Shown one piece after another: positions 25,358 through 58,024 of a stretch of DNA of 64,000 nucleotides. Location: assembly GCA_963708025.1 (NCBI GenBank), contig CAVPSB010000013.1, positions 192,001-256,000 of the forward strand. The letters are read 5' to 3'. This DNA comes from an uncultured Candidatus Rokubacteria bacterium. Lineage in GTDB: Bacteria > Methylomirabilota > Methylomirabilia > Rokubacteriales > DASRDR01. The notes below the pieces were generated by a model. It had not been told where the DNA came from. It saw nothing but the letters and a program-made list of their open reading frames with translations, and did no database searches. The position numbers were made by a program, and so were the translations under genes. Every line of letters begins with the position of its first letter. Within the stretch, counting starts at the first letter, position 1.

Positions 25358-26999
25358 CTACCGGCCCTCGCCCATCAGGCCCTTGTAGAAGCGGACAAGC
25401 GCCTTGGGCGATCCGTCTCCCGGCGCCCCGGGGTCGAGGGCCAGCCGCGAGCTGGCGTACGCCTCGCCGTCCGGGTCGTCGAGCCGGGCCCGGATCGCCG
25501 CGTCGACCTTCAGCTTCTGGCCGGTGAGCGGGTCGTTGAAGGCGGAGAACGACAGCACATAGTAGCTGATCGCCCACCGCTCCGCCTCGCTCATCGAGTC
25601 GACGAACGACGGCATCGGCGTGCCGTCGAGACCGGTGGCCATCGCCCGGAAGATGTCGCGGACGTCCGAGCCGCCCTTGAACTGGCCCCGGGTGAAGTCG
25701 GCGGGGCGGATCCTGAACCCCCAGTCGTCCTTCAGCTCGCCGGCCGAGGGTCCGTCCCCCTTGCCGCCGTCGCCGTGACACTGGAAGCACTTGGCCTTCG
25801 CGTAGAGCGCCTTGCCCTGCTCGAGCAGCTCCGGCGTCGCCCGGGGCGGGTCGCCGATCGGGATCGGCGGATCCGGCTTCTCGTCCTTCCACCGCGGCGA
25901 GAAGGTCTTCACGTAGCTGATCACGGCGAGCCGGTCCTTCTCGGGCAGCTCGTGCCAGGTGGGCATCGCCGTGTAGCGCACGCCACGCGTGAGGGTGCGG
26001 AAGAGGTCACCGTCGGTCGGCAGCGAGCCGGACGGCGTCGTCCGGAACTTGAAGGCGCCGAGGCGGAAGTCGCGCGGCCGCGGGTCGAGGAAGGTCGCGA
26101 CGGGCCCGTTGCCGTCGCCCTTGGCGCCGTGGCAGCCCGACGCAGCGCCGCTCGTAGACCTCCCGGCCCCGCGCCTCTTGCGCCTCCGTCCGGGGAATGG
26201 TCATGACGCTGGCCGAGATCGTCTGGGGCTCGAAGGCGTCCCGCCACGCCCCGCGGTTCATGCCCAGCTTCTGGATGTACGCGACCAGCCCTCGCAGCTC
26301 CTCGGTGGGGACGACCACCGTGAGGGTCTTGCCCTGCCAGGCGTCGACCCGGTTGTACGGCTCGGGCAGGTTCTCGACGTCGAGAGCCGGCGTCCCGTCC
26401 GTCTCCTCGGAGAAGGCCAGCCCCGTCGGGGCTCGGGATGGAGCGGCAGCCGCCGGTCGCTCCCGGTGAAGAGGGCGCGCAGCCCGGCGGAATCGGCCAG
26501 GACCGGCCCGCCGTCCTTCGCCGCCACCACGACCCGGACGCGTCCGGTAGAGCCAGCGGAACCCCGGCATCACCGAGTCGGGCACGATCGCGGTCGGTGT
26601 CCAGTGATGGGCGTAGTGCCAGCCGTCGGCGTACTTGAGCCCGACGCGCGTGAGGTCCGGCCCGATGCGACGGGTGGAGAGCAGGTGCGGCCAGTCGTGC
26701 GCGTACTCCCCCACCTGGGAGACGGGCCCCCACCGCATGTCCTCGCCGGTGACCGGCCGGACGTACTGGCTGTGGCAGTACCAGCAGCCCTCGCGCTGGT
26801 ACACCTGGCGACCGAGCTGCTCGCGCGGGCTGTAGGGCGACGACTCGTACCAGACCCACTTGATGTCGCCGAGGTCGTTCCGCACCGCCCGCGTCGCCCG
26901 CGTCTCGCGCGACTCCGGGATGGCGATCGGCAGGATACCCTGGATGAAGATCGCCAGCGAGATGCAGAGGAAGCCGGCGCCGAGGGTGTAGGCTTTCAT
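25358..26999 (-). CDS. ccoO: cbb3 subunit II (CcoO) fused to two further cytochrome c domains (frameshifts near 26535, 26435, 26137)
   Basis: GRQVYQREGCWYCHSQYVRP, RIGPDL, SVMP, LVAYIQKLG; then CVG/CHG across a frameshift, PRPRDF..FKF, AMP; then CFQCH, TPMPSF. Confidence 0.82.
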
Positions 27000-27139
27000 G
27001 TCAATTCGGGACCTCCCGCCCACCCGATCCTTGGATGGCCTTCGGCCTTTGGCCCCCCTCCCCCACCGTTCGACGGCCTTCGGCCTTTGGCTGGGGGGAG
27101 GGAGGAGCCGGAGCAGCCAATTCCGTCACGCGCGCTCAC
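26996..27139 (-). other. 47-aa ORF spanning the repeat between ccoN and ccoO
   Basis: GTG overlaps the ccoN TGA; its TGA overlaps the ccoO ATG (ATGA). Confidence 0.5.
27004..27135 (-). repeat. REP-like element family A with two GGCCGAAGGCC modules
   Basis: Closely similar to 57855-57986. Confidence 0.85.
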
Positions 27140-28569
27140 GCCTGGGCCGGCCGGACGCCGGGGGCCCCCACCGGGCGCTCGGGCGCGGCGGCCGGCGCCG
27201 GCTCCATCGCGGTCCGCATGAAGTTGTAGACCAGGAGCGACATCCCGACGTCCATCGAGATGCCCGACAGCGTCCGCACCAGCCAGAACGGCTTCATGGT
27301 CACCACCGTGTCCACCCACTCCGCGCGGGCCATCAGCATGTACCCCTGCTGGAGCCCCTGGGCGGTGAGGACCAGGCCCATGGTGGAGATCCCGAGCGTG
27401 ATCAGCCAGAAGCTCCAGTTGCCGAGGCGGAAGCTCCACAGCTCGCGCCCGCACAGTCGCGGCCAGACGTAGGTGGCGCCGGCGATGGCCCACACCACGA
27501 AGGTCCCGAACACGGTGAGGTGCGAGTGGGAGATGACGAAGTCGGTGAAGTGGGTCGGCTCCTGGATGGCGCGGAGCGCCTCGGTCGAGCCCTGGAAGCA
27601 GCCCACCAGGTACATGATCGAGCCCATGATGAGGAACTTGGCGGGGAGGTTCCGGGAGAAGCCCCCCCAGTGCCCGACCATCGTCCCGAAGAAGTTCTGG
27701 AGCACGGTCCACACCGGGATGATGAGCATCATCGAGGAGATGATGGCGATGGTCTCCGCCCAGTCGGCGATCGGGCTGAACAGGTAGTGGTGGATGCCGA
27801 CGAAGGGATAGAAGAACGCCAGCGACCAGAAGCCGATCAGCGAGAGCTTGTGACTGTAGATAGGGGCCCGGACCGACGCGGGCAGGAAGTAGTAGATGAG
27901 CACGTACCCGGCCGGGGTGATCCAGAGTCCGACGACGTAGTGGATGTAGAGCCCGTGGAGGGCGGCGTTGTTGACCCCCGGCACCGTCCCGTAGGGGCCG
28001 ATGATGAGCAGGAGCAGGTTGATGCTGGTCCAGACCAGGGCGCCGATCAGGTACCAGAGGCTCACGTAGAGGTGGCGCTCGGTCCGGCGGGCGATGGTCA
28101 TGAGCATCTGGACGGTGGCGGCGATGATCACCACCGTCACCACGAGGACGTTGGGCAGTGGAAGCTCCCCTGCCTCCCAGCCCCGGTTGCCGCCGAATAC
28201 CGAGAGCCAGACGAACCCGACGACGAGGTTGAGGTTCCAGATCCAGAGGAGGGGCTGGCCCCACTCGCCCTTCCAGATGCGCACCCCGCACAGCCGCGGG
28301 GTGACGTAGTAAGCCAGGCCCATGAACAGCGTGGAGAAGGCGCCGAAGATGACGCCGTTGACGTGGACGGGGCGGAGGCGGCCGAACGTCGACCACGCCC
28401 AGTCGCCGAGGAAGTCGGGGTAGTTGAACTTGGTCGAGATGAGGACACCGACGGTGGGGGCGACCATGAGCCAGACGAACCCCCACAGGAGCCAGCCGCG
28501 GATGAGCCGGGCGTCGATCAGCTCGTCGTTGGCGCGGAGCGTCGCGCCCCACGTGCCCGGCGCCGTCAT
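27136..28569 (-). CDS. ccoN: C-family (cbb3-type) heme-copper oxidase subunit I, divergent
   Basis: FGRLRPVHVN, YVSLWY, YIHYVVG, YYFLP, YSHKLS..FFYPFVGIHH, HFTDFVISHSH. Confidence 0.88.
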   Translation of the reverse strand: MTAPGTWGATLRANDELIDARLIRGWLLWGFVWLMVAPTVGVLISTKFNYPDFLGDWAWSTFGRLRPVHVNGVIFGAFSTLFMGLAYYVTPRLCGVRIWKGEWGQPLLWIWNLNLVVGFVWLSVFGGNRGWEAGELPLPNVLVVTVVIIAATVQMLMTIARRTERHLYVSLWYLIGALVWTSINLLLLIIGPYGTVPGVNNAALHGLYIHYVVGLWITPAGYVLIYYFLPASVRAPIYSHKLSLIGFWSLAFFYPFVGIHHYLFSPIADWAETIAIISSMMLIIPVWTVLQNFFGTMVGHWGGFSRNLPAKFLIMGSIMYLVGCFQGSTEALRAIQEPTHFTDFVISHSHLTVFGTFVVWAIAGATYVWPRLCGRELWSFRLGNWSFWLITLGISTMGLVLTAQGLQQGYMLMARAEWVDTVVTMKPFWLVRTLSGISMDVGMSLLVYNFMRTAMEPAPAAAPERPVGAPGVRPAQA

Positions 28570-28573
28570 GGGG

Positions 28574-28990
28574 TCAAGATACCTCCACCCGGGTGCTGGC
28601 GTCGAACCGACCGCCACGGTTGTTGGCGAGGAGCACCTGGAGCACGCCGCCCCGTCCGGCTCGGAGGCGGAAGGTGATGAGCGGGTCGTCGCCCAGCGCG
28701 GACGTGAGCTGGAAGCGGCAGACCGGCTCGCCGCCGTAGAGCGCGGTGAGGCTCTCCAGGTGGAAGGGCGGCGACTCCGCGACGAACCGCCCGTCCCGGT
28801 AGGCGAGGCCGGTCCGGTTCGGATGGTTGAGCTCGTAGTTCACGCTGGCCCGATGGCGGAACGCACGCAGCAGGGTCTCCTGGACGAGGTCCTCGGCGTG
28901 CGTCTCGTCGCGGGTCAGCAAACGGCCGTAGTTATAGAGGGAATCGAGATACTTCAGTGCCAGCTCCTGGAACGGGACGCCGTCGTCCAA
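28574..28990 (-). CDS. Chimeric ORF: ECF sigma region-2 N-terminus fused to a SoxZ-like domain
   Basis: FQELALKYLDSLYNYGRLLTRDETHAEDLVQETLLRAFR followed in frame by HPNRTGL..FHL..TSALGDDPLITF..NNRG. Confidence 0.6.
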   Translation of the reverse strand: MDDGVPFQELALKYLDSLYNYGRLLTRDETHAEDLVQETLLRAFRHRASVNYELNHPNRTGLAYRDGRFVAESPPFHLESLTALYGGEPVCRFQLTSALGDDPLITFRLRAGRGGVLQVLLANNRGGRFDASTRVEVS

Positions 28991-29012
28991 TCGCCTGCTC
29001 TCTGTCTTTACA

Positions 29013-29039
29013 TTACGGCTGCGCCGCGCCGTTTATTCC
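29013..29039 (-). promoter_or_regulatory. ECF (SigR/SigH-like) promoter
   Basis: GGAAT-N18-GTAA directly upstream of the sigma-like ORF. Confidence 0.55.
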
Positions 29040-29145
29040 CTGCCCGGCCCCGGGAGGCCGGCGCCGCCCCGCCGCGGTTCCCCCGGGGCCGTTCCCTGGT
29101 CCGACCCGGCCGTGGGTCGGAACGCGTCGCGCCGCCGTGCCCTCG

Positions 29146-29937
29146 TCACTGGCGATCGGGGCCGGGCTGGATGTACCAGGGGCAGATCAGTCGCTCGGCC
29201 ACGACGACCGCCCAGAAGACAAGGACGCCGAGGACCGAGAGGGCGGCCATCACCCCGAAGACGACCGCGGTGTTGAGGTTGCTCGAGGCGACGATGATGA
29301 GATAGCCGAGCCCCTTGTCGGACCCGACGAACTCGCCGACCACCGCGCCGATCACGGCCAGGCTCATCGCGACCTTCATGCCGCTGAAGACATGGGGCAG
29401 CGCCCACGGCAACCGCACCTTCCAGAACACCTGCAGGGTGCCCGCCCGCAGCGACCGCGTGAGCTGCAGGAGATCCGGCTCAACCGACTCCAGCCCGGCC
29501 GCGGTGTTCACCACCATCGGGAGGAAGGCCACGATGGTGGCGACGATGACGTTGGTCACCAGCCCGTGGCCGATCCAGATCAGGAAGAGCGGGGCCAGCG
29601 CGATCTTCGGGACGGAATTCAGGACGACGATCAGCGGGTAGATCACCCGGCGCAGGACGGGGGAATACACGATGCCCACCGCGATGGGCACCCCCACGAC
29701 GACCGACATGGCGAAGCCCCCCAGCGTCTCGTAGAGGGTGACGCCGGCGTGGGCCGGGATCCGGTCCGCCCACTTCCACGTCTCGGTGACGATCGCGCTC
29801 GGCGCCGGGAGCAGCCAGACCGGGATGCGGGCGCCGCGGCACCCCAGCTCCCACAGCCCGACGAGCCCCAGGATGGCGAGGGCCGGCAGCCCGTACTCCC
29901 GGAGCCAGGGCCAGCGTGGCTCGCCCGCCGGCCTCAT
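29146..29937 (-). CDS. NitT/TauT-family ABC permease
   Basis: LPAPSAI, VPKIALAPL, LPHVFSGMK, GAVVGEF. Confidence 0.92.
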   Translation of the reverse strand: MRPAGEPRWPWLREYGLPALAILGLVGLWELGCRGARIPVWLLPAPSAIVTETWKWADRIPAHAGVTLYETLGGFAMSVVVGVPIAVGIVYSPVLRRVIYPLIVVLNSVPKIALAPLFLIWIGHGLVTNVIVATIVAFLPMVVNTAAGLESVEPDLLQLTRSLRAGTLQVFWKVRLPWALPHVFSGMKVAMSLAVIGAVVGEFVGSDKGLGYLIIVASSNLNTAVVFGVMAALSVLGVLVFWAVVVAERLICPWYIQPGPDRQ

Positions 29938-29959
29938 GGTCCCCCTCGGCCCGGGACGC

Positions 29960-30733
29960 TCATGCGGGCTCGCGCGAGGGCGCGATGGCCGCCCGGATCG
30001 CCTCGGCGTACTTCTGGAAGTCCGGGGAGAACTCCATCTTGATGCTCCGTGGGCGCGGGAGGTCGATGGGCACGACGTTGACGATGCGCCCGGGCCTGGC
30101 CGTCATGACGGCGACCCGGTCCGCCAGGAGGATCGCCTCGGGAATGCTGTGGGTCACGAACACGACCGTCTTCCTCCGCTCGCTCCACACGCGGAGGAGC
30201 TCCAGGCCCATCTCTTCGCGCGTCATCGCGTCCAGGGCCCCGAACGGCTCGTCCATCAGGAGGAGCGGCGGGTCGTGGATCAGGGCGCGACAGATCGACA
30301 CCCGTTGCTGCATGCCACCGGAGAGCTCGCGGGGGACGCTCCGCTCGAACCCGGCGAGCCCGACCAGGGCGATGAGCCGCTCGGCCTCGGCCCGGTACTG
30401 GCTGCGGGACCGCCCCAGGATCTCGATGGGAAAGAGGATGTTGTTCACGACGTTCCGCCAGGGGAGGAGGACCGGGCTCTGGAAGACCATGCCGACGTCC
30501 GGCGACGGCCCGTCCAGCGGCGTCCCCCGAACGCGGATGGTGCCCTCGGTGGGCGGGAGCAGGCCGGCGATCAGCTTGAGGAGCGTGCTCTTGCCGCAGC
30601 CACTCGGGCCGACGATCGTGAGGAACTCGTCGGCGTGGACGTCGAGGCTGACCCCTTCCAGCGCGGTGACGACGGTCCGCGAGCGGGTCTGGTAGCGTTT
30701 CGAGACGTTCTCGACGCCGATGAAGACCGCCAT
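29960..30733 (-). CDS. NitT/TauT-family ABC ATPase
   Basis: GPSGCGKST, LSGGMQQR, LLMDEPFGALD, VTH. Confidence 0.95.
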   Translation of the reverse strand: MAVFIGVENVSKRYQTRSRTVVTALEGVSLDVHADEFLTIVGPSGCGKSTLLKLIAGLLPPTEGTIRVRGTPLDGPSPDVGMVFQSPVLLPWRNVVNNILFPIEILGRSRSQYRAEAERLIALVGLAGFERSVPRELSGGMQQRVSICRALIHDPPLLLMDEPFGALDAMTREEMGLELLRVWSERRKTVVFVTHSIPEAILLADRVAVMTARPGRIVNVVPIDLPRPRSIKMEFSPDFQKYAEAIRAAIAPSREPA

Positions 30734-30759
30734 CCGGAACTGCCGGCCGTCGCCCCGCG

Positions 30760-31788: not shown

Positions 31789-33146
31789 AGGTAGTCCTCG
31801 AGCCGGACCCGGTCGGCGCCCGGAATCTTCTTCCGCTCGAACTCCGCCCGCCACTCGAGGGGCGCGGTGGCGTCGATGCCGAGCCGCCCCCAGTGGACCT
31901 GGTGCGGGTCGCGGGCGAACGACGGGACGTCGGGGATCTGGAAGATGTTGCGGTCGGGCCGGCAGCGGGTGGACATGGCCCAGACGACGTCCTTCAGGTC
32001 CCGGATGTCCACGTCCTCGTCCACCGCGACGCAGTACAGGATCCGGTTCATCTCGGCGCCGAAGGCGGCCAGGATGGCCTTCCGCGGCTGGCCCTCGAAC
32101 TGCTTCGTCAGCTTGAGGACGCAGAACTGGAGGAGCGGCCAGCACGCGACGTCGGTGACCGTGGGCACCCACGTGCGCACCGCGCGGTAGATGCTGCCGG
32201 CGGTCGGGATGCTCGACATGGTGATCTCTTCGGTCGAGCCGGAGAGGATGGCGTAGAAGAGGGCCCCGGGCCGGGCGGTGACCCGGCGCACGGCCAGCAC
32301 GTGGTTGTCGGTCACCGGCACGTAGTAGTCCATCCACTCGCCGAACGGTCCCTCCGGCCGCCGGACGTTGGGGAGCAGCGCGCCCTCGATGACGATCTCG
32401 GTCGCGGCCGGCACCTCGAGGTTGACGGTCCGGCACCGGCGGAGCGGGACGCGACAGCCGGCGATCCGTTCGGTCAGCTCCAGCTCGCTCTCCTCCGGAC
32501 CGATCGTCGCCCCCGCGGCCACCATGAGGGCCGGCGCATTCCCGATCAGCACCGCGACCTCGAGGGGCTGCCCGCGCTGCTCCGCGGTGGCGTGCATCCG
32601 GTACAGATCGCCGGAGGTGCTCAGGCGGCAGCGCAGCTCGCTGGCGTTGACGATCTGCATCCGGTGATAGGAGAGGTTGACCCGGCCGGTGTCGGGCTCC
32701 TTGGCCAGGACCACGCCGGCGGTGATGTAGGGTCCGGCGTCCTTCTCGCAGAACGTGAGGAGCGGCAGGTCCAGCAGGGAGCACTCCTCGTGGTCGTTGA
32801 CGCCCGGCGAGCACGGCGTGGCCGGGAGCGGGCGCCGGTCCGCCACCAGCCCGGCCCACGTCCGGACCACGGCGTCGGGCTCGACGCCGAGCACCCGGGC
32901 GACCCCCTCGTAGCTGCCGCAGAGGTTGCTGACGACCGGGAAGGCCGTCCCCCGCACCCGCTCGAACAGGACCGGCCGGTTGCGGGTGCGCTGGATCTCC
33001 CGGAGGACGGCCGCCAGCTCGAACTTCGGCTCGACCTCCTTCTTGACCCGGACCAGGAGCTGCTCGGCATCGAGCCGGGCCAGGAAGCTGCGGAGGCTCG
33101 CCACCGGGGACATCGCCGGGGAGGAGTCGTCGTTCATGCCGCTCAC
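31785..33146 (-). CDS. UbiD-family prFMN-dependent (de)carboxylase
   Basis: LRSFLARL, LFERV, KDAGPYIT, NLSYHRM, EIVIEG, EGPFGE, VDEDVD, WAMSTR, GIDAT. Confidence 0.92.
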   Translation of the reverse strand: MSGMNDDSSPAMSPVASLRSFLARLDAEQLLVRVKKEVEPKFELAAVLREIQRTRNRPVLFERVRGTAFPVVSNLCGSYEGVARVLGVEPDAVVRTWAGLVADRRPLPATPCSPGVNDHEECSLLDLPLLTFCEKDAGPYITAGVVLAKEPDTGRVNLSYHRMQIVNASELRCRLSTSGDLYRMHATAEQRGQPLEVAVLIGNAPALMVAAGATIGPEESELELTERIAGCRVPLRRCRTVNLEVPAATEIVIEGALLPNVRRPEGPFGEWMDYYVPVTDNHVLAVRRVTARPGALFYAILSGSTEEITMSSIPTAGSIYRAVRTWVPTVTDVACWPLLQFCVLKLTKQFEGQPRKAILAAFGAEMNRILYCVAVDEDVDIRDLKDVVWAMSTRCRPDRNIFQIPDVPSFARDPHQVHWGRLGIDATAPLEWRAEFERKKIPGADRVRLEDYL

Positions 33147-33149
33147 CTC

Positions 33150-33318
33150 TTCGGGACCTTCCGCCCACCCGATCCTTCGACGGCCTTCGGCCTTTGGCCC
33201 CCTCCCGTCTGACGGGATCGCCGGGACGGCGAGGGCCTACGGCCCTCGCGACGTCCCGTCCCTCCGGTGGGCACCGGGGGGAGGGGGGAGCCGGAGGCCT
33301 CGATTGCTTCACACCCTC
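33150..33318 (-). repeat. REP-like element family A, long variant
   Basis: Shares the internal CGGGACGTCGC..GCCGTCCCGGCGATCCCGTCA block with 43024-43199. Confidence 0.85.
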
Positions 33319-33994
33319 TTAGCGCCTGAGCTCGGCCGCGGGCGGATCGATCGCCCGCAGCCGGTACAGCTCCATCTCCGGTCGATAGCGCGCCCACAGC
33401 TCGGCGAGCCGTCCGATCGGATCGCTCTCCGCCCAGTCCACCCGCAGGTTGACGAGGGGGAAGCTGTCGTGGGCGACGACCCGGAGTCCCGCCGAGTGCT
33501 CGTTCCCACCGACCTCCCCGCCGGCAGCCTTGCCGACCTCGAGCGCGCGCACGAGCCGGTCGGCGAGGTGGAAGTCCGCGGCCGCCCGGAACGCCGCCGC
33601 CATGGCGGGAACCACCGTCTCGGAGGCCAGGAGGTTGCCCGTCACCGCGAGGTTCGGCTCGCTCAGCTCGGCCGCGGTCGGGAACGCCTTGGCGCCCGTC
33701 CACGTCGCGCTCGCGCCATCGCGATCGACGCAGGCCAGCTGCCGGTACTCGGGGTACCGGCCACCCCGGACCAGCTCGTTCGACGACTGCCCGGGCGCCG
33801 TAACCCTGCCGCAGGAGCGAGAGGCCGAGCTGCCCGAGCCCAGGATCGGTGACGTTCTGGGTGGTGACGCCCCCCGCGTTCGCCTCCAGCCACACGCAGC
33901 GGGCCGCCACGCAGATGCTCGAGGTCGTGATCGCGATGCCGAGCATCCCCGTGCGCTCGCAGCGCGCCACCAGGCTGTAAGTGTGGGTCACCAT
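33319..33994 (-). CDS. DUF1028 (Ntn-hydrolase-like) protein (frameshift near 33781)
   Basis: HTYSLVARC..TGMLG, TQN, then YRQLACVD, GNLLAS, LRVD. Confidence 0.82.
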
Positions 33995-34005
33995 GGCCGA
34001 CGGTG

Positions 34006-35247: not shown

Positions 35248-35289
35248 GTGATCGGCTCGAGCCGGATGCGTGGTGCCGACTCTACGCGC

Positions 35290-36913: not shown

Positions 36914-37097
36914 GTCCGATCCCTCCCCTTGTCCGGACGGTCCGGACGGTCCGGACGCGCGCGGTTGCCCCCGCGCCCCGGTGTGCTCCGACCGGTCATT
37001 GTAGCGCGCGCGGCCGGCCGGCGCTTGACGCCCGCAGGTGGCCAGCGTACGGTACAGTGAGGTGCCCGATCCAGCCGCCGGAGCGGAGGAATCCACC

Positions 37098-37502
37098 ATG
37101 TCAGGCGAGCGGCGGCGGGTCCTCGTGGTCGACGACGACGCGGGGATCACGTTGACCTTCGAGAAGATCCTGCAGGGCGAGGGCTACGAGGTCGCCACCG
37201 CGACCGACGGCGTCGAAGCGATCGAGCTGGCCCGCCAGTCGCCCTTCGATTGCGTCCTGCTCGACCTGGTCATGCCGCGCATGGACGGGCTGACCACCCT
37301 CCACTACCTCAACACGGTGGCGCCTCAGGCCCGCGTCGTCATCCTGTCCGCCCACCTCGGCCGGAACTGGGAGGCCGAGGCGCTGCGCCTCGGCGCGGCG
37401 GCGGTGATGCCCAAGCCCCCGGACATCGCCAAGCTCCTCCGCCTCTGCGACGAGCTGATTCGCCAGAGCCGACCGCCCGCCGACACCGCCCGTCCCGCCT
37501 GA
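37098..37502 (+). CDS. Single-domain response regulator
   Basis: VLVVDDD, LLDLVMPRMDG, PKP; TTGACG-N17-TACGGT upstream. Confidence 0.9.
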   Translation: MSGERRRVLVVDDDAGITLTFEKILQGEGYEVATATDGVEAIELARQSPFDCVLLDLVMPRMDGLTTLHYLNTVAPQARVVILSAHLGRNWEAEALRLGAAAVMPKPPDIAKLLRLCDELIRQSRPPADTARPA

Positions 37503-43001: not shown

Positions 43002-43023
43002 GGTCTCCCTCCCCTTCCCCTGC

Positions 43024-43199
43024 GAGCGTGTGAAGGAATCGGGTCCTCGGGTCCTCCGGCGCCCCCCTCCCCCCGGTGCCCGCCGGAGGGGCGGGACGTC
43101 GCCCACAGGCCGAAGGCCGTCCGATCGGCCGCAGGCCCTCGCCGTCCCGGCGATCCCGTCAAACGGGAGGGGGCTGGGGGGGTGGGCGGGAGGTCCCGA
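43024..43199 (+). repeat. REP-like element family A, long variant
   Basis: Starts GAGCGTGTGAAGGAATCGGG and ends GGGAGGTCCCGA. Confidence 0.85.
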
Positions 43200-46757: not shown

Positions 46758-46758
46758 G

Positions 46759-47535
46759 GTGCCGCGCGAGGACGGCTCGGGGGCGGGGGGGTCGGCCCTC
46801 CGCCCCCTCCTCCGCGCCGACGGGCTGACCGTCCGGTTCGGTGGGCTCACCGCGCTCAACGGCGTGACGCTGTCGGTCATGCCGGGCGAGATCCGTGCCC
46901 TGATCGGGCCCAATGGCGCCGGCAAGAGCACGTTCTTCAACTGCGTCACCGGGGTGCTGCGGCCGACCGGCGGCCGCATCCTGCTCGACGGGGAGGACGT
47001 CACCGGGCTCCCGCCCGACCGCATCTCCCGGAAGGCGATCGCCCGCTCCTACCAGATCACGAATCTCCTCCCCGGCGCCACCGTGTTCGAGAACGTCCGG
47101 ATCGCCGCCCAGTCGCGCCGGGGGGGGTGGAGCCTGCTCCGGCACCACCGGGCGCTCCGGGACGTGAACGACCGCGCCCGGGCGGTGCTGGAGGCGGTCG
47201 GCCTCGCCGACAAGGAGGACGAGGTGGCAGCCAACCTTTCGCATGGCGAGCAGCGGAATCTCGAGATCGGCATCGCGCTCGCCACCGAGCCGAAGCTCCT
47301 GTGCCTGGACGAGCCGACGGCCGGCATGAGCGTCGCCGAGACACGCGCCACGGTCGAGCTGATCCGCCGGATCGCCCGGGACCTGACCATCCTGATCGTC
47401 GAGCACGACATGGAGGTCGTGATGGGGCTCGCGCGGACCATCACCGTGCTCCACTACGGCGAGGTGCTGGCCGAGGGCAGCCCGGCCGAGATCCAGGGCA
47501 ACCCCCGGGTCCAGGAGGTCTACCTGAAGACATGA
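46759..47535 (+). CDS. livG: LivG-like ABC ATPase
   Basis: FGGLTAL, GPNGAGKST, LDEPTAG, EHDM. Confidence 0.9.
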   Translation: MPREDGSGAGGSALRPLLRADGLTVRFGGLTALNGVTLSVMPGEIRALIGPNGAGKSTFFNCVTGVLRPTGGRILLDGEDVTGLPPDRISRKAIARSYQITNLLPGATVFENVRIAAQSRRGGWSLLRHHRALRDVNDRARAVLEAVGLADKEDEVAANLSHGEQRNLEIGIALATEPKLLCLDEPTAGMSVAETRATVELIRRIARDLTILIVEHDMEVVMGLARTITVLHYGEVLAEGSPAEIQGNPRVQEVYLKT

Positions 47536-47633
47536 CGACGTGGGAAGGTGCAGGTTCGTCCGACACCCCCCTCCCCCCGGTGGGTGGGGGAGGGGGGCTG
47601 GGGGGGTGGGAGGGAGGTCCCGAACAATCCTGA
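47532..47633 (+). other. 33-aa ORF spanning the repeat between livG and livF
   Basis: ATG overlaps the livG TGA (ATGA); its TGA overlaps the livF ATG (TGATG). Confidence 0.5.
47558..47624 (+). repeat. REP-like element family A
   Basis: CCCCCTCCCCCCGGTGGGTGGGGGAGGGGGGCTGGGGGGGTGGGAGGGAGGTCCCGAA. Confidence 0.85.
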
Positions 47634-48340
47634 TGCTGACGCTGAGCGACGTCCACGCCCACTACGGCAAGTCCCACGTCCTCCACGGCGTCTCGATCCA
47701 CGTCGGGCCGGGGGAGGTCGTGGGCATCCTCGGCCGGAACGGCGTCGGCAAGAGCACGACGCTCAAGACCATCCTGGGACTCGTGCGGGCCTCCGCCGGG
47801 CGGGTGACCTTCGACGGACACGACGTCACCAGCTGGGCACCCCACCGGGTAGCCCGGAAGGGCATCGCCTACGTTCCAGAAGACCGCCGGATCTTCCGGC
47901 TGCTCACGGTCCTCGAGAACCTCCGCACGGGCCTGGACCGCCCCGACGTCACGCCGGAGCGGCGGCAGGCGCTGCTGGACAAGGTCTACCGCCACTTCCC
48001 GGTGCTGCGGGAGCGCCGCGACCAGGCCGGCGGCACGCTCTCCGGCGGCGAGCAGCAGATGCTCGCGATCGCCCGCGCGATGATGCTCGAGCCGAAGATC
48101 GTCCTCCTCGACGAGCCGACCGAGGGCCTCATGCCGCGCATGGTCGCCCAGATCCGGGAGATCATCGACCTGCTCCGGACCGAAGGCGTGGCGATCCTGC
48201 TGGTGGAGCAGAACGTGCCGCTGACCCTGGCGGTGAGCGAGCGGGTCTACGTGATGGAGAAGGGCACCGTGCGCCACGAGGCCCCGGCGGAGGCCCTTCG
48301 CCGGGACGTCGCCGTGATCCACCAGTACCTCGGGGTCTAG
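47633..48340 (+). CDS. livF: LivF-like ABC ATPase
   Basis: GRNGVGKST, LSGGEQQM, LDEPTEGL, VEQN. Confidence 0.9.
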   Translation: MLTLSDVHAHYGKSHVLHGVSIHVGPGEVVGILGRNGVGKSTTLKTILGLVRASAGRVTFDGHDVTSWAPHRVARKGIAYVPEDRRIFRLLTVLENLRTGLDRPDVTPERRQALLDKVYRHFPVLRERRDQAGGTLSGGEQQMLAIARAMMLEPKIVLLDEPTEGLMPRMVAQIREIIDLLRTEGVAILLVEQNVPLTLAVSERVYVMEKGTVRHEAPAEALRRDVAVIHQYLGV

Positions 48341-50154: not shown

Positions 50155-50167
50155 GGGCCGGGGCCCG

Positions 50168-50977: not shown

Positions 50978-50993
50978 GGACGACGGCCGGTCC

Positions 50994-52215: not shown

Positions 52216-52223
52216 GCGGCGCC

Positions 52224-53225
52224 TCAGTCGTCGACCACGGCCATGTAGGGCACGCGGGCGACCGGGACCGAGCGGCTCACCTTCAGGGTGGCCGTGTCCA
52301 CGACCGACAGGTCGTCGCTCAGCCCGTTGCAGACGTAGAGCGTCTTCTCGTCGCGCGTGAGCACCACGTTCCACGGTCGCTTCCCGACGAGGGCGAAGCC
52401 GATCACCTTGCGGTCCGGCACGCTCACCACCGCCACGTGGTTGGCGCGCCCCAGGCCCACGTACGCGAGCTTGCCGTCCCGTGTCATCGTGATGCCCACC
52501 GGGGTGATCTCGTCCGGCCGAAAGCCCTTGGGCTCGAACCGGATCTCCCCGGTGACCTGGTTCGTGGCGGTGTCGATGATGCTGACGGTCCCGCCGATCT
52601 CGTTGGTGACCCAGAGCGCCTTGAGGTCAGGCGTGAGGGTGAAGCGCCGGGGCCGGTTCCCGACCAGCACGTTGGCGACGACCTTGCGGGTCGCCACGTC
52701 GATCACGTGGACCATGTGCGCCACCTCGGAGGTGACGTACACCAGCTTGCCGTTGGGATGGGCGAGGACGCCCTCCGGCTCGGCGCCGACCTTCACCGTC
52801 GCCACCTTCTTCCGGCTGGCCATGTCGAAGAACGTGAGCTCGGCGTCGTCTTCGTTGCCGACGTACATCATCTTGCCATCCGGCGAGAGGTCGAAGACCT
52901 CGGGGTCGGGGCCCACGTCCAGGTGATCGACGACCTTGAGCGACGCCACGTCGATGACGTCGACGCGATTGGAGTCACTGGCCGCCACGTACAGGAGCTT
53001 CCGGTCGGCGCTGAAGCGGAGGTGCCGGGCGCGGTTGCCGGTCTTGACCAGCGTCACCTTCGCCAGCGTCTTGCCGTCCAGCACGACGACGCCGTGGTCC
53101 CGCTCGCTGCTGACGAAGATGCGGCCGGTGTCCAGGGCGGCCGCCGGCACGGCCAGGGCGAGCGCCAGTCCCGCGAGCAGCCCCGGCAGCACCCACCCGA
53201 TCCCTTCGATGCTCGTACCTCTCAT
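52224..53225 (-). CDS. YVTN beta-propeller, PQQ-catabolism-associated (LutB/PedA2-like)
   Basis: Signal peptide, GPDPE, NEDD, VGAEPEG, TSEVA, VGNRPR, LGRANHVA, NGLSDD. Confidence 0.85.
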   Translation of the reverse strand: MRGTSIEGIGWVLPGLLAGLALALAVPAAALDTGRIFVSSERDHGVVVLDGKTLAKVTLVKTGNRARHLRFSADRKLLYVAASDSNRVDVIDVASLKVVDHLDVGPDPEVFDLSPDGKMMYVGNEDDAELTFFDMASRKKVATVKVGAEPEGVLAHPNGKLVYVTSEVAHMVHVIDVATRKVVANVLVGNRPRRFTLTPDLKALWVTNEIGGTVSIIDTATNQVTGEIRFEPKGFRPDEITPVGITMTRDGKLAYVGLGRANHVAVVSVPDRKVIGFALVGKRPWNVVLTRDEKTLYVCNGLSDDLSVVDTATLKVSRSVPVARVPYMAVVDD

Positions 53226-53286
53226 GAAACCTCCTCCACGAAAGTGCCGGCAGCGCCTCACGGGGTCTTCCGAGATCCCCCGACGT

Positions 53287-54099
53287 CTAGAATTCCCAGT
53301 TGAAGATCGCGATGATCCGGTAGTCGAACTCCTTGGCACTGGTCAGTGGGATCTGGACGCCGCCCCGCACGCTGGTTCGCCGCGGCAGCTTGAAGATTAT
53401 GCCGGGCGTCAGGTACACCTGGGTCCGTCCCACCAGGCTGGGCTCGTCCTCGTCGTCCTCCTGCTCATCGCCGCTTCGGGTCTGGGTGACCAGGTTCAGC
53501 TCCAGGAGCGGCGTCACCCGCCGCCACCCAGTATACGCGGCGGCCAGGTTGACCTGAAGCGACTCGGCCCCCGAGTCGGCGCCGTCGACGATCCACGCGT
53601 AGCTGACCTCGCCGATCAGGTCGATCGGCCCGAGCCCGATCCCGGCGGTGACGTACGGGGTCGCCGTCGTCGACCCGCCCAGGCCCCGGCCCTCGGACCC
53701 GGTCGGCAGCCCGAGCTCGAACCCCACCGCGAGCAGGACCGCGTACTGGATCGATTGGAACACGCGGAACCGGGCATCCAGCGCGATGTCGCCGAGGCCG
53801 ACCTCGTCGGACGCGTCCCGGGGCGACAGATAGACGAGCGGGACCTCCAGGCTGATCGAGAACGGCCGGCCGAACCGCCAGGACAGCTCGACCTCGGTCT
53901 CGAGCTCGCGCCCCTCGCGGCCCTTCTCGTAGCTGACGCTCACTTCCAGCTCGCGCTCGGGCATCGGGCTCCGGGTCACGAGGGGGTCGAAGACCCGGAC
54001 GTCGGGCTCCTCGACGTCCTGGGCCCATGCGCGGGGAGCGACGGCGGTCAGGGTGACGGCGAGGGCGAGGGGCAGGGCGGCGGACATGCGGCGCGGCAT
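53287..54099 (-). CDS. Outer-membrane beta-barrel, MetA/phenol-degradation-like
   Basis: Signal peptide, GLGDIAL, LPTG, YLTPG, GVQIP, terminal NWEF. Confidence 0.75.
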   Translation of the reverse strand: MPRRMSAALPLALAVTLTAVAPRAWAQDVEEPDVRVFDPLVTRSPMPERELEVSVSYEKGREGRELETEVELSWRFGRPFSISLEVPLVYLSPRDASDEVGLGDIALDARFRVFQSIQYAVLLAVGFELGLPTGSEGRGLGGSTTATPYVTAGIGLGPIDLIGEVSYAWIVDGADSGAESLQVNLAAAYTGWRRVTPLLELNLVTQTRSGDEQEDDEDEPSLVGRTQVYLTPGIIFKLPRRTSVRGGVQIPLTSAKEFDYRIIAIFNWEF

Positions 54100-54149
54100 G
54101 GGCCTCCTCGGGATCCGGGACGACGGGACGGAGGGGAGCCGAGCCCCCC

Positions 54150-54515
54150 TCACTCGGCGATCATGACGCCGCTCAGGTTCGGCGTGGAGTCGTCGTCGAC
54201 CAGCTGGTACTTGCCCGGCTTCAATGCCGGCATCTGGAGCCGCAGGGTCTGGCCGGCGCGGACCTTCTTCTCGAGCTTCAGGTTCGGGATGTCCAGCTCG
54301 TGCGTGATGTCGTCGGCGTTCGTCAGGACCAGGACGAACGGGCGGCCGGCCTTCACCTTGAGCTCGGCGGGCACGAACTTGTCCTTCTCCATGGTCAGCT
54401 TGACCTCCACCGGCGCCTGGGCGATCGCCGACGGCACCGGGATCTCCAGAAGGCCCAGGGTGAGCGCGAGCACGAAACCGGCCCCAGCCGTGCGCCTCGT
54501 CATACGACCCTCCAT
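54150..54515 (-). CDS. Periplasmic cupredoxin-like protein (EfeO/FtrB-type) lacking Cys
   Basis: Signal peptide, FVPAELKVKAG, NAD..HE, EK, LKPGKY..DDD, GVMIAE. Confidence 0.78.
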   Translation of the reverse strand: MEGRMTRRTAGAGFVLALTLGLLEIPVPSAIAQAPVEVKLTMEKDKFVPAELKVKAGRPFVLVLTNADDITHELDIPNLKLEKKVRAGQTLRLQMPALKPGKYQLVDDDSTPNLSGVMIAE

Positions 54516-54653
54516 GTCTCTCGTCCTCGTGGTGACCCCGCCCGGGGCCTCGGGAGCGCCCGACAGTCCGCGCCCATCCCGTCTCGCCCTCCCTTACAGG
54601 ATGGGCCACCCGGTGACAAGCCCCAGGTGGCCACCCCGGGGGTGGCCGGGTGG

Positions 54654-55346
54654 CTACGGCTCGGCCGGCGGGGAGCCTGGTGGCAGGTGAAAGTCGCGGA
54701 TCAGGCCGCGACGGACCGCTTCGACCGCGGCTTGCGTGCGGTCGGTGACCTGGAGCTTCTCGATGATGCGCTGGACGTACTTCTTGACGGTGCCGACGCT
54801 GCAGCCCAGGCGGTCCGCGGCCTCCCGGTTGGTGAGCCCGTGGGTGACCAGCGTCAGGACCTGTCGCTCCAGGGGGGTGAGCGGCTCGGCGGTCGCCCAC
54901 GACGGCGGCGACCCGGGCTCCGCCGCCACCGCCTCGACGACGCGGCTCAGGAGGCGCGGATCGATGACGGACCCGCCCTCGAGGACCGCGCGCACGGCCG
55001 CCAGGAGCTCCCGCCGGGTGATCCCCTTCAGCACGTAGCCGCTCGCCCCCAGCTTGATGGCCTCCTGGACGTAGGGGGCATGGTCGTGCATGGTGACGAT
55101 AAGAACCCGCGCGGCGGGGGCGCTCAGCTTGATCCGCCGCAGCACGGTCAGCCCGTCGAGGTCCGGGAGCTGGAGATCGAGCAGGACCAGGTCGGGCGTG
55201 AACTCCGGCACCTTGCGCACGGCCTCCTCGCCGCTCGCGGCCTCCGCCCAGGCGGCGACGTCCTCGGCCAGCATGCTCTTGAGCCCTTCCCGGACCATGG
55301 GGTGGTCGTCGACCGCCAGCACCCGCGGCTTGAGATCAGCCGGCAT
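54654..55346 (-). CDS. NarL/LuxR-family response regulator
   Basis: VDDHPMVREG, LLDLQLPDLDG, GYVLK, LTPLERQVL, NREAA, DRTQAAV. Confidence 0.93.
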   Translation of the reverse strand: MPADLKPRVLAVDDHPMVREGLKSMLAEDVAAWAEAASGEEAVRKVPEFTPDLVLLDLQLPDLDGLTVLRRIKLSAPAARVLIVTMHDHAPYVQEAIKLGASGYVLKGITRRELLAAVRAVLEGGSVIDPRLLSRVVEAVAAEPGSPPSWATAEPLTPLERQVLTLVTHGLTNREAADRLGCSVGTVKKYVQRIIEKLQVTDRTQAAVEAVRRGLIRDFHLPPGSPPAEP

Positions 55347-56319
55347 CGGCCTGGCCGGCCCCACTCCGGAGCGGGATGGTGGCGATCACCCGCGTGCCCC
55401 CGGCCGGCGCGCTGTCGATTCGGCAGGTGCCGCCCAGCAGACGCGCCCGCTCCCGCATGCTCACGAGACCGACGCCCGTGGCCACGCCCGAGTCGGGCGT
55501 GACCCGGAACCCGATCCCGGTGTCCGCGACCTCCACCACCAGCGTGTCGCGACCGGCGCGCAGGGTGACCGTGAGCCGGGAGGCCCGCGCGTGCTTGGCG
55601 GCGTTCGCGAGGGCCTCCTGGACGATGCGGTACACCGCGGTCTCCACCCGGGGCGGGAGCCGCACGTCACCGAGGTCCGAGCCGAGCTCGACCGTCCATC
55701 CCGCCTCGTGGCCGGTCTCCTCGAGCAGGGTCTTCAGCGCCGGGATCAGGCCCAAGGTCTCGAGGGTGGTCGGGCCGAGCGCGGCCAGGAGCCGGCGGGT
55801 CTCCACGATCGCCCGGTCCAGGCGGGTGCAGACCCGCTCCAGCTCGCCCTCCGCCGCCGGGGCCTGGCTGCGCCACAGGGCCTCGAACGTGTCGAGGTGC
55901 TGCTTCGCGCTCACGATCATCGGCGCCACACAGTCGTGGATGTCGTAGGCGACGAGCCGGCGCTCCTCTTCCTGGATGACCCGAAGCCGCTCCATCGCCG
56001 CCGCCAGCGCCTGCTCCTTCTCGTGCAGCGCCGCGATCACGCGCTCCAGCTCCGCCGAGCGCTGGATGGCCTGGTCCATGAGCGCGCTCTTACCCTGCCA
56101 GGCCCGGATGAAGACGAAGGTGCCAGCCAGGATCGCGAGCACCTGGCCTCCGTGCAGCACGAGCCCGAGCCAGAAGCGCATGCTCGAGGGCCCGAAGCGC
56201 TCGAGCGCCCAGATCTCCACGAACTCCTGCCCGGCGACGAGCAGGAACACCGTGGCCAGGACGAGCTCCTTGTGTCGCCCCAGCGTCTCCCCCAGGTTGC
56301 GGCGGCCGGGCCCCGTCAT
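55336..56319 (-). CDS. HisKA_3 sensor histidine kinase with two TM helices
   Basis: EERRLVAYDIHD, RIVQEALANAAKHA, DTGIGF, GLVSMRER, GGT. Confidence 0.92.
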   Translation of the reverse strand: MTGPGRRNLGETLGRHKELVLATVFLLVAGQEFVEIWALERFGPSSMRFWLGLVLHGGQVLAILAGTFVFIRAWQGKSALMDQAIQRSAELERVIAALHEKEQALAAAMERLRVIQEEERRLVAYDIHDCVAPMIVSAKQHLDTFEALWRSQAPAAEGELERVCTRLDRAIVETRRLLAALGPTTLETLGLIPALKTLLEETGHEAGWTVELGSDLGDVRLPPRVETAVYRIVQEALANAAKHARASRLTVTLRAGRDTLVVEVADTGIGFRVTPDSGVATGVGLVSMRERARLLGGTCRIDSAPAGGTRVIATIPLRSGAGQADAG

Positions 56320-56322
56320 CGA

Positions 56323-57069
56323 TCAGCGGCGCTCGCCGCCCTTCCCGGTCAGCTCGATGAAGGCGTCGGCCACCGTGGCCTTTCCGGTCTTCTCCGTCAG
56401 CTCGGCCGGCGTGCCCTCCGACAGGAGCCGCCCCTGATGCAGCACCAGCACGCGATCCGCCCCTTCCGCCTCGTCCACGAGATGGGTCGCCCACAGGACA
56501 CCCAGACCCCGCTCGCGGCATTGGGCGTGAACGTAGTCGAGCAGCGAGCGTCGCGATGCGGGGTCCAGGCCGACCGTCGGCTCGTCCATGAGCAAGAGCC
56601 GCGGGTCGTGCAGGAGGGCCCGGGCCAGCTCCACCTTGCGGCGGTTGCCGCCGCTGAGCGTCCGGCAGAGCCGGTCGGCCTCCGCGGCCAGGCCGAGCCG
56701 CGCCAGCTCCTCCTCGATGCGGGTCCGGGCGCGCCGGCCGCCCAGGCCGTGCAGCCGGGCGTGAAAGCGCAGGTTCCCGCGGACGGTCAGGTCGAGGTCG
56801 AGGGTGGGCTGCTGGAAGACCACCCCGAGCGTGGCCAGGACGGCCACCGCGGAGCGCCGGATGTCCTGCCCGCCGACCGTGATGCGGCCGCCGTCGGCGA
56901 CGAAGAGCCCGGTCAGGAGCTGGAACAGCGTCGTCTTGCCGGCTCCGTTCGGGCCGAGCAGCGCCACGAACTCGCCCGCGTCGACGGCCAGGCTCACCCC
57001 GTCGAGCGCCTTGCGGGAGCCGTACGACTTGCTGGCCCCGTCCACCTGGAGCAGCGGGCCGGGGCTCAC
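56323..57069 (-). CDS. ABC ATPase of the PQQ-ADH-associated transporter (PedB/LutE-like)
   Basis: GPNGAGKTTLFQLLTGL, VFQQPTLDLDLT, LSGGNRRKVE, DEPTVGLD, LWATHL. Confidence 0.85.
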   Translation of the reverse strand: MSPGPLLQVDGASKSYGSRKALDGVSLAVDAGEFVALLGPNGAGKTTLFQLLTGLFVADGGRITVGGQDIRRSAVAVLATLGVVFQQPTLDLDLTVRGNLRFHARLHGLGGRRARTRIEEELARLGLAAEADRLCRTLSGGNRRKVELARALLHDPRLLLMDEPTVGLDPASRRSLLDYVHAQCRERGLGVLWATHLVDEAEGADRVLVLHQGRLLSEGTPAELTEKTGKATVADAFIELTGKGGERR

Positions 57070-57854
57070 GCGGATCCGCCCGCCGGGGGCGCCGGATCGC
57101 CGTGCACCTGTCCCGCCAGCAGCTCGGGATGCGCCCCGAGCACGCGGTCGTGGAGGGCGCCGACGGCGGGGTCCCCGGGCTCCCGGGGCCGGGGGATCTC
57201 CACGGGCAGCTCCATGACCACCCGGCCGGGGCCACTCGACAGGAAGAGCACGCGGTCGGCCACGGCCAGGGCCTCGCGCAGCTCGTGGGTCACGTAGAGC
57301 ACCGTGGGTCGCGTCTCCTGCCAGAGGTCGAGCAGCTGGCGCCGGAGCCGCGACGCGGTCGGCGCGTCGAGCGACACCAGGGGCTCGTCCAGCAGCAAGA
57401 GCTGAGGGCGGATCGCGAAGGCCCGCGCCAGGGCGACCCGGCGCTGCATCCCGCCGGACAGCTGACCGGGAAACGCCCCCTCGACCTCGTCGAGCCCGAC
57501 GTCGCGGATGAGCTTCCGGGCCTGCGTCGTGCTCTCCGGGTCCCGCCCGAGCACCAGCCGCACGTTGTCGAGCACCGTGAGCCAGGGCATCAGGCGCGAG
57601 GCCTGGAACATGACGCCGATCCGGACGGCCGGCTGGCCGTTCCGGTGGGCCCGCTCGCCGTCCAGGTGCACGTCCCCGTCCACGGCGCGGTCGAGGCCCG
57701 CGACGACGTTCAGGAGCGTGCTCTTCCCCGCCCCGGACGGGCCCACGATGGCCACGATCTCGCCCGGCGCCGCGGTGAACCGGAGGTGCTCCAGGGCCGG
57801 GCGGGCGGCGCCGGCGTAGACCTTGCGGCGGATGTCGACCCGGAGTCCGCTCAG
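57066..57854 (-). CDS. NitT/TauT-family ABC ATPase (start CTG 57854 or ATG 57992 inside the repeat)
   Basis: GPSGAGKST, LSGGMQRR, LLDEP, VTH. Confidence 0.88.
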   Translation of the reverse strand: MSGLRVDIRRKVYAGAARPALEHLRFTAAPGEIVAIVGPSGAGKSTLLNVVAGLDRAVDGDVHLDGERAHRNGQPAVRIGVMFQASRLMPWLTVLDNVRLVLGRDPESTTQARKLIRDVGLDEVEGAFPGQLSGGMQRRVALARAFAIRPQLLLLDEPLVSLDAPTASRLRRQLLDLWQETRPTVLYVTHELREALAVADRVLFLSSGPGRVVMELPVEIPRPREPGDPAVGALHDRVLGAHPELLAGQVHGDPAPPAGGSA

Positions 57855-58024
57855 TTCGGGACCTCCCGCCCACCCGATCCTTCGGACGGCCTTCGGCCTT
57901 TGGCGACGGCCTTCGGCCTTTGGCCCCCCTCCCCCACTGTCCGACGGCCTTCGGCCTTTGGCCGGGGGGAGGGGGGGGCCGGAGGCACCCATGCCTTCGC
58001 CCCCAACAAGCCCGGGCCGCTCAC
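57851..58024 (-). other. 57-aa ORF spanning the repeat between permease and ATPase
   Basis: GTG overlaps the permease TGA; its TGA overlaps the in-frame CTG of the ATPase. Confidence 0.45.
57855..57986 (-). repeat. REP-like element family A with three GGCCGAAGGCC modules
   Basis: Closely similar to 27004-27135; TGAGCGG occurs at both 58023-58017 and 57853-57847. Confidence 0.85.

Follow-up and report, generated by a model that had tools for sequence, protein, structure and literature searches.

Why should a repeat lying between two genes of an operon be crossed from end to end by a short open reading frame (ORF), whose start overlaps the stop codon of the gene upstream and whose stop overlaps the start codon of the gene downstream? 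The question is raised by a stretch of 64,000 nucleotides (nt) from the genome of an uncultured Candidatus Rokubacteria bacterium (the window, G000:C13:192001-256000), in which copies of a repeat that we call family A separate ccoN from ccoO, livG from livF, and a permease gene from that of an ABC ATPase. An earlier note on this DNA had proposed that such repeats survive inside operons when the bridging ORFs act as a ribosome relay. We have surveyed family A throughout the genome. Its architecture, its target sites and the corresponding empty sites in a relative lead us to a different answer: family A is probably a non-autonomous insertion element and, as part of the same judgement, the bridges appear to be a footprint of how and where it inserts and not a condition for its survival.

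The genome (G000) comprises 8.17 Mb in 49 contigs, with 71.2% GC and an estimated completeness of 99.67%. Genes were called with a simple purpose-written program that scores codon log-odds (training set, 1390 long ORFs), selects greedily and slightly favours starts with a ribosome-binding site; it gave 7385 genes. Called stops are reliable and called starts less so, which limits every test below that uses a downstream start, and all frames are those of the assembly as given, with C/G homopolymer lengths unpolished. Comparisons were made with G012, the closest usable relative, which belongs to another genus of the same family and is 70-82% identical at the DNA level.

Repeat copies and bridging ORFs in the window

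We call a strict bridge any ORF that overlaps the upstream stop with its start and the downstream start with its stop. Four junctions in the window are of interest. By Pfam, their flanking genes are COX1 and FixO; two ABC_tran genes, the first also with BCA_ABC_TP_C; BPD_transp_1 and ABC_tran; and DUF1028 and UbiD.

27001-27138, minus strand: family-A copy separating ccoN from ccoO; the ccoN stop is its head TGA (27138-27136), the tail runs to CCCGAA at 27005, and a second TGA occupies 27003-27001; matches to both head and tail hidden Markov models
26999-26997, minus strand: ATG start of ccoO
26996-27139, minus strand: bridge ORF ccoN>ccoO, GTG to TGA, 47 codons, with GTGA at the ccoN stop and ATGA at the ccoO start; a strict bridge
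47533-47633, plus strand: family-A copy of the short type, separating livG from livF; the livG stop is its head TGA (47533-47535), and after the tail, which runs to 47624, come AATCC and TGA 47631-47633
47633-47635, plus strand: ATG start of livF, overlapped by TGA 47631-47633
47532-47633, plus strand: bridge ORF livG>livF, ATG to TGA, 33 codons, with ATGA where livG stops and TGATG where livF starts
57851-58023, minus strand: family-A copy separating the permease gene from that of the ABC ATPase; the permease stop is its left TGA (58023-58021), the tail runs to 57855, and the right TGA occupies 57853-57851
57851-58024, minus strand: bridge ORF permease>ATPase, GTG to TGA, 57 codons, beginning at the ancestral ATPase start GTG 58024-58022
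57990-57992, minus strand: alternative ATPase start ATG within the element head, in frame and 46 codons before the CTG at 57854-57852; the gene caller's choice
33143-33322, minus strand: composite family-A copy between the DUF1028 gene and ubiD; head TAA 33321-33319 is the stop codon, tail ends at 33150
33322-33143, minus strand: stop-free frame DUF1028>ubiD, CTA to TGA, 59 codons, with no start codon

The three doubly coupled ORFs described in the earlier note are present exactly where, and at the lengths, it gave. Those at ccoN>ccoO and livG>livF have canonical codons at both ends, and the ATG of the latter exists because the last livG codon is ACA in G000 (ACC in G012). The permease>ATPase ORF, in contrast, ends on a TGA overlapping not a canonical start but the CTG at 57854-57852. 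This CTG is now the first codon of conserved ATPase sequence, the ABC_tran domain lying 21 residues beyond it, and comparison with G012 identifies it as what is left of a GTG start which, prior to insertion, had overlapped the stop. The only canonical start further upstream in the ATPase frame is the ATG at 57990-57992, use of which would add a repeat-encoded N-terminal extension. This copy is also atypical in its head, which carries an insertion, and has TGAGCGG at both ends. A fourth frame, at DUF1028>ubiD, begins with CTA and hence lacks a start, just as had been reported, but the overlap claimed for its end falls on a GTG within the motif GAGGTGA; the caller's choice of ubiD start is the ATG at 33137, 6 nt further on. 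The DUF1028 ORF itself (33319-33645, minus strand) is only 108 amino acids long and covers profile positions 114-193 of 193, so it may be longer than called, or disrupted.

Architecture of family A

Profile searches with nhmmer find 295 heads and 293 tails in G000, or about 300 copies, with a tail core no more than 270 nt from the head in 226 of 233 heads. The alignment of 81 copies recovered via the tail motif gives the following parts.

Head: (C)TGA followed by GAGCGTGTGAAGGAATGGG
C-rich arm: CTCCGRCTCCCCCCTCCCCCC, pairing with the G-rich arm in a long hairpin
G-rich arm: GGTGGGGGAGGGGGG, pairing with the C-rich arm
Internal module: about 21 nt, CCAAAGGCCGAAGGCCGTC, present 0-3 times per copy; a multiple of 3, containing the mini-hairpin GGCC-GAA-GGCC
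Tail: GGATCGGGTGGGCGGGAGGTCCCGAAC (also given as GGGTGGGCGGGAGGTCCCGAAC), often with TGA again after it

Copies are thus modular, some 90-200 nt in length, with lengths clustering at 92, 113, 134 and 155 nt. Two subfamilies differ by one G more or less in the head linker (AATGGGTCC versus AATGGGGTNC). Arrays are direct and head-to-tail, joined by CTGA, so that tandem copies have one TGA in common. Genome-wide, a common G/A polymorphism at the tail site GGGT(G/A)GGCGGG gives rise to a TAG, by which one frame is shut 17 nt short of the end of the tail.

Inspection of the consensus reveals no terminal inverted repeats, the head start GAGAGCGTGTG failing to match the reverse-complemented tail end GTTCGGGACCT; there is only an internal, imperfect inverted repeat (GGGTCCTCCGGC / GCGGGAGGTCCC). 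Hairpin energies of the two best copies are -71 and -51.7 kcal/mol, no different from those of their dinucleotide shuffles (z = -0.48 and -0.27). The repeat is structured, then, in the sense that it has a hairpin of C-run and G-run which is expected from composition alone.

Landing on TGA stop codons

Family A prefers TGA, mostly the stop codon of a gene and in that gene's own orientation, and a TGA is left on each side. At the head position TGA is found in 182 of 212 heads, and the preceding base is C in 135 of these 182, compared with 2285 of the 4901 TGA stops in the genome. Of 179 paired copies, 155 have the same orientation as the gene upstream. That gene's stop coincides exactly with the head TGA in 80 of the 155, and with the second head TGA, 10 nt on, in six more. 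After the tail, CTGA follows directly in 98 copies. Antisense copies have TCA on both flanks, and the right-hand one can be the stop of a convergent gene.

The earlier note had called for a comparison with empty orthologous junctions, and this proved informative. All three window junctions that could be matched in G012 are empty there, each with a single TGA where G000 has one on both sides; for the DUF1028-ubiD junction no match was obtained in G012. At permease/ATPase the relative reads GCGTGACC, in which GCG is followed by TGA and the ATPase GTG overlaps the stop as GTGA. At livG/livF it reads AAG ACC TGATG, and at ccoN/ccoO a TGA is followed after 1 nt by a GTG start. A further junction outside the window, at G000:C13:43387, is likewise empty in G012. 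We read these pairs of filled and empty sites as insertion with duplication of a TGA target, 3 nt long or possibly longer, one copy having TGAGCGG at both ends.

How insertion can generate a bridge

It is convenient to name the frames of the element T, T+1 and T-1 relative to the head TGA, T-1 being the one that begins at the NTG over the upstream stop. Frame T is closed in 177 of 208 copies and T+1 in 171, while T-1 is open in 169. T-1 alone stays open because the two head TGAs, 10 nt apart, close the other two frames and the rest of the element is nearly stop-free: from head to tail, stop triplets are absent in 131 of 208 copies, and in 157 of 208 all three antisense frames are open. Since T-1 begins where it does, a start overlapping the upstream stop requires only that N be G, A or T, as is the case in 46 of 208 copies (GTGA 32, ATGA 8, TTGA 6); the codon is CTG in 116 of 208. 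The other overlap, of a stop with the downstream start, is simply the duplicated TGA or an ancestral ATGA, the site of landing having been an overlap of stop and start. Register alone then remains to be set by chance or by selection.

The steps that we propose are few. The element lands on a TGA, commonly a gene's stop and in the sense orientation, and leaves a TGA on either side. Where the ancestral junction was an NTGA or TGATG overlap, as the three empty sites suggest, the right-hand TGA would still sit on the downstream start. A doubly coupled ORF would then arise whenever the length of the element sets T-1 in register and N is G, A or T. Pure chance arising from low stop density was also considered and is insufficient by itself, since what gives rise to the ORFs is the fixed position of the head TGAs together with duplication of the TGA.

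Bridges across the genome

Among 213 sense-element junctions in co-directional gaps of 60-300 nt, an ORF start lies on the upstream stop in 79, an ORF stop on the downstream start in 83, both occur in 36, and 14 (6.6%) have a strict bridge; 132 have at least one open frame. Repeat-free gaps of the same size (n=1803) give 590, 680 and 247 for the same three classes, with 1233 having at least one open frame, and yield 74 bridges (4.1%) regardless of any repeat. The two bridge frequencies differ by a Fisher odds ratio of 1.64 (p=0.11). A smaller paired set has five bridges in 118 junctions, with five of 16 in register and 63 lacking an open frame, and antisense junctions have one bridge in 21. 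The tests of register that follow are exploratory, confined to one genome and of small n.

The earlier note had linked the survival of the repeats to a relay, and had suggested testing whether register exceeds the one-in-three expectation. No excess is seen (14 of 36; binomial p=0.29). Of the 213 sense copies lying in co-directional gaps, 199 are without an ORF overlapped at both ends, 81 of them having no frame at all that is open across the gap, so that the relay is not a general rule. Because strict bridges and register are both near control or chance levels, a relay is not needed for persistence inside operons.

Register and the case for a relay

A narrower form of the relay has nonetheless to be weighed, although we find it rather doubtful. 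Where the element split a stop-start overlap, selection would keep the sole open frame in register. Ribosomes would re-initiate near the upstream stop, translate through the hairpin, stop on the duplicated TGA and re-initiate on the ATG or CTG there, a sequence of events that we regard as just as tentative. We measured register in copies with a stop at the head and a TGA right after the tail, taking L as the distance between the two Ts; at L = 2 mod 3 the open frame ends on the right-hand TGA, and at L = 0 mod 3 the copy is in fusion register.

Several results favour such selection or weigh against bridges being a by-product of insertion. Bridges are about twice as frequent as in controls when gaps are restricted to 90-200 nt (13/151 versus 39/931, p=0.024). 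If the downstream frame has its start on the duplicated TGA, the end of the open frame falls at that TGA in 21 of 35 copies, as against 12 of 50 elsewhere (Fisher p=0.0014); the counts for L mod 3 of 0, 1 and 2 in this class are 6, 8 and 21 (3x3 chi-square p=0.015). Independent classing by coding potential alone gives 5, 5 and 17 versus 23, 16 and 13, that is 17/27 versus 13/52 in register, and the bias remains when members of arrays are removed (15/26 versus 9/36, p=0.017). Copies in register are not young, their heads being more diverged than those of the others (median 38 versus 46.6 bits, p=0.011), and the lengths of 92, 113, 134 and 155 nt have been held through many substitutions, the 92-nt copies showing no indels. 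Within the subfamily with a 24-nt head, a canonical core length is commoner in the TGA-start context (16/20 versus 8/18, p=0.042). At livG>livF the bridge has the textbook ATGA and TGATG overlaps, its ATG owed to the ACA codon mentioned above. Here livF, which was TGATG-coupled in G012, lacks a GGAGG at usable distance, so that some substitute for that coupling is required. Finally, the insertion mechanism has been deduced from the flanks of the copies, no transposase partner having come to light.

Two simple explanations of the register bias can be set aside. It does not stem from young, pristine copies, given the divergence of in-register heads and their many substitutions at constant length, nor from the gene caller, since it persists with frames assigned from coding potential only.

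Set against these points, the bias is chiefly a matter of subfamily. A 24-nt head is found in 20 of 32 copies in the TGA-start context versus 13 of 49 elsewhere (p=0.0024), and this is a subfamily trait (24- versus 25-nt head), while canonical core lengths are similar in both contexts (20/32 versus 26/49). The use of other contexts as controls, another check suggested by the earlier note, thus reveals a bias in one subset which is mostly carried by the head length of a subfamily. In a broader test of all tight downstream genes 30 of 69 are in relay register, and a criterion of openness over 85 nt provides no discrimination. Register bias is confounded with subfamily, and selection on register is possible; that such selection is real we consider questionable. 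Other observations speak against a relay. Most sense copies at junctions, as we have seen, lack the doubly overlapped ORF and many lack any open frame, and the codon over the upstream stop is most often CTG. An in-frame ATG in the head has been lost in five of seven in-register 92-nt copies. According to published work (PMC10666635), coupling needs an overlap or a very short distance, which is satisfied only if the bridge is translated.

Taken to its conclusion, the narrower relay would make family A a mobile 'coupling cassette', bringing with it a stop, one open frame and a Shine-Dalgarno motif, and restoring the overlap of stop and start. Its length would be selected in register (92 + 21k nt) and ribosomes would pass the hairpin to re-initiate on ATG or CTG. 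We put this forward tentatively, and think it more probably wrong than right. In sum, the general relay interpretation is not supported; one frame bias hints that ribosomes might use the bridges, and the narrowed idea stays testable.

Genes without a canonical start

An element that lands in an NTGA overlap has a further effect, for it turns the downstream start into CTG, composed of the last base of the element and the TG of the duplicated TGA, as comparison with G012 shows for the ATPase. At least nine genes beheaded in this way have no canonical start at their conserved N-terminus, and Pfam domains read from the CTG begin where the N-termini of the families do. The nine are the ATPase of the window and the eight below, with two ABC ATPases in all.

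RuvC, near G000:C25:159680-160300: residue 5 from the CTG is profile position 3; next canonical start at codon 16
CobT-like: residue 10 from the CTG is profile position 3; next canonical start at codon 40
ADH-like: ADH_N domain from residue 26 after the CTG; next canonical start at codon 14
MR/MLE-like: residue 32 from the CTG is profile position 26; next canonical start at codon 14
ABC ATPase: domain from residue 21 after the CTG; next canonical start at codon 9
PdxA: next canonical start at codon 9
Alpha/beta hydrolase: next canonical start at codon 25
GH99-like: next canonical start at codon 78

The RuvC gene is the only good copy in the genome; five relatives align with it from residue 2, with an upstream extension that is not found in G000. 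Such genes might be expressed by Shine-Dalgarno-driven initiation at CTG, by re-initiation after a bridge, or from an in-frame start within the element, such as the ATG at 57992.

The second of these routes is that of the relay, and in seven of the nine genes the open frame does end on the TGA over the CTG (binomial p=0.008). The first would make the tail a portable ribosome-binding site, which, through its GGGAGG, 7-nt spacing and NTG, would allow initiation de novo and leave the bridging frame irrelevant. This idea is compatible with family A being an insertion element that leaves bridges behind, and we judge it a little likelier than the relay, though still below even chances. The tail places GGGAGG 7 nt upstream of the CTG, within the genomic peak of GGAGG at 5-7 nt before predicted starts, a peak to which the caller's ribosome-binding-site bonus may contribute. 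The tail is also the most conserved part of the element, many tail matches covering only model positions 32-56, and many downstream starts lie no more than 26 nt from its end. The strong sense bias (155/179) would suit an element tolerated only when it delivers such a site. CTG is, however, a weak start codon in the bacteria that have been studied, and GGAGG lies 12 nt from the ATG of ccoO and 15 nt from that of livF. A portable site leaves the register bias unexplained, and conservation of the tail could equally stem from requirements of mobility.

The third route leads to exonisation, in which some copies would be translated within a neighbouring protein, either extending its N-terminus or linking two of its domains. 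As an account of the bridges we find this the least likely of those considered. The ATPase frame is open back to the ATG at 57992 with no other canonical start, which makes such an extension possible there. Outside the window, a copy at G000:C13:43387-43527 (L067:4788-6431, minus strand) has lost both head TGAs and lies in frame between two hydantoinase ORFs. The result is a stop-free stretch of 548 codons encoding Hydantoinase_A, Hydant_A_C, about 65 repeat-encoded residues and Hydantoinase_B, where in G012 the genes are separate (TAG, 2 nt, ATG). This one copy is thus read in frame inside a protein-coding ORF, and it is an exception: fusion register is not enriched (six of 35 copies in the TGA-start context), and the head stops are kept in the great majority of copies in both frames that they close (177 and 171 of 208).

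Other features of the window

Three further copies of family A in the window had gone unlisted in the earlier note (18890-18959, 21394-21491 and that beginning at 43021), all without bridges. They are given here together with the only match to Rfam in the window, no Rfam family being found over the family-A repeats.

21394-21491, plus strand: antisense family-A copy with TCA on both sides, the right-hand TCA 21489-21491 being the stop of the gene at 21489-22319 (minus strand)
43021-43140, plus strand: composite family-A copy, mapped over its head and first part, in a divergent intergenic gap
18890-18959, minus strand: degenerate sense fragment of family A between co-directional genes, with the upstream stop at 19051-19049 and no bridging ORF
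3160-3231, minus strand: tRNA gene

The antisense copy has the 14-nt sequence CCCGAAGATCTCAG at both ends, and its variant tail (GAAGATC or GAAAATC before TCA) recurs elsewhere in the genome.

Mobilisation and distribution

A search of G000 for candidate movers gave little. Y1_Tnp (PF01797), the domain of RAYT transposases, has no match in G000, though the same search was positive in six of 14 genomes as a control, and genes for DDE_Tnp_4 and DDE_Tnp_1_2 are likewise absent. RAYT, Harbinger-like and IS1031-like transposases can therefore be rejected as movers. The genome does have five DDE_Tnp_1 and seven IS110-type genes, and these too were rejected, not being associated with the repeats: 11 of the 12 have no head or tail within 3 kb, and the other has a single opposite-strand tail some 2.6 kb away. 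No head-tail pair encloses a transposase in G000, although, among 49 contigs, a copy at a contig end could escape notice.

Family A seems to be of narrow distribution. Its exact tail 20-mer occurs in no other species representative searched, apart from one chance match, and a recognisable element was seen in only five of eight metagenome loci. A related head variant, TGAGAGCCCGTGAAGGAATCG, is found in three genomes from other genera of the same family, G002 (seven matches), G006 (two) and G001 (one). All 15 genomes of genus g5 lack it, which makes its distribution patchy. Replication of the bridge statistics in other genomes failed, there being too few copies.

Significance

If family A is indeed an element of the kind that we propose, it is a small mobile repeat that lands by preference on the stop codon itself. 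Such a preference would explain a number of annotation problems, namely at least nine genes that lack a canonical start, the sole good ruvC among them, and one repeat-fused gene pair. It would also show that an insertion can split a translationally coupled pair and yet be tolerated, and would provide some 200 natural constructs, differing in length by single bases, with which to probe the influence of distance and structure on re-initiation. Were the coupling cassette true, a structured repeat could colonise operon junctions while beheaded genes such as ruvC and those of the ABC ATPases stay expressed. And should the register bias prove real, family A would be, to our knowledge, the first repeat family held in reading-frame register without encoding a conserved peptide.

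Comparison with known systems

Family A is an unusual variant of the small bacterial mobile repeats, and probably one not described so far. Our literature searches found neither a repeat that duplicates stop codons, nor a two-step relay through a repeat, nor a repeat family held in register without a conserved peptide, which is not proof of absence.

The closest resemblance is to repeats like the tiny transposable elements with inverted repeats known as MITEs, such as ERIC/IRU, YPAL/RU-2 and the 107-bp form of the Correia element. These are about 100-200 bp long, strongly base-paired, mostly intergenic and next to genes, and MITE-like bacterial repeats carry contiguous open frames able to fuse with neighbouring ORFs and show target-site duplication (PMC2229807). 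Family A shares their size, base-pairing, position beside genes, open frames and target-site duplication. It differs in that its ends are not inverted repeats and that the duplicated target is a TGA (TCA in antisense), usually a stop codon, rather than TA. It differs too in its strong sense bias, the head stops in two frames, the Shine-Dalgarno-like motif of the tail and in that no related transposase was found. Of three MITE features examined, target-site duplication is evident from empty and filled sites, while terminal inverted repeats and a partner insertion sequence are lacking.

REP, BIME and REPIN sequences, which are mobilised by RAYT (Y1) transposases (PMC3116915, PMC3333891), are like family A high-copy, GC-rich, hairpin-forming and extragenic, and often lie just downstream of genes. 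Family A, however, has no accompanying Y1_Tnp; it is a modular element of 90-200 nt rather than a palindrome of 20-40 nt, and its arrays are direct and TGA-sharing rather than inverted pairs. Rickettsia palindromic elements, known as in-frame insertions in genes (PMC10969869, PMC2229807) and, with the MITE-like repeats, among the nearest descriptions, offer a parallel for an open-frame repeat that is readable as protein, as in the copy joining two hydantoinase ORFs. In-frame copies are exceptional in family A, in which the element normally supplies or keeps a stop codon.

Lastly, termination-reinitiation coupling is known at ATGA and TGATG overlaps (PMC6728339, PMC10666635). Overlaps of precisely these types are found at either end of the two best bridges, and the ancestral permease/ATPase and livG/livF junctions, as seen in G012, were such overlaps. 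Unlike in plain coupling, the genes of G000 now lie 100-170 nt apart, and to couple them an intermediate ORF running through a hairpin of about -50 to -70 kcal/mol would be required.

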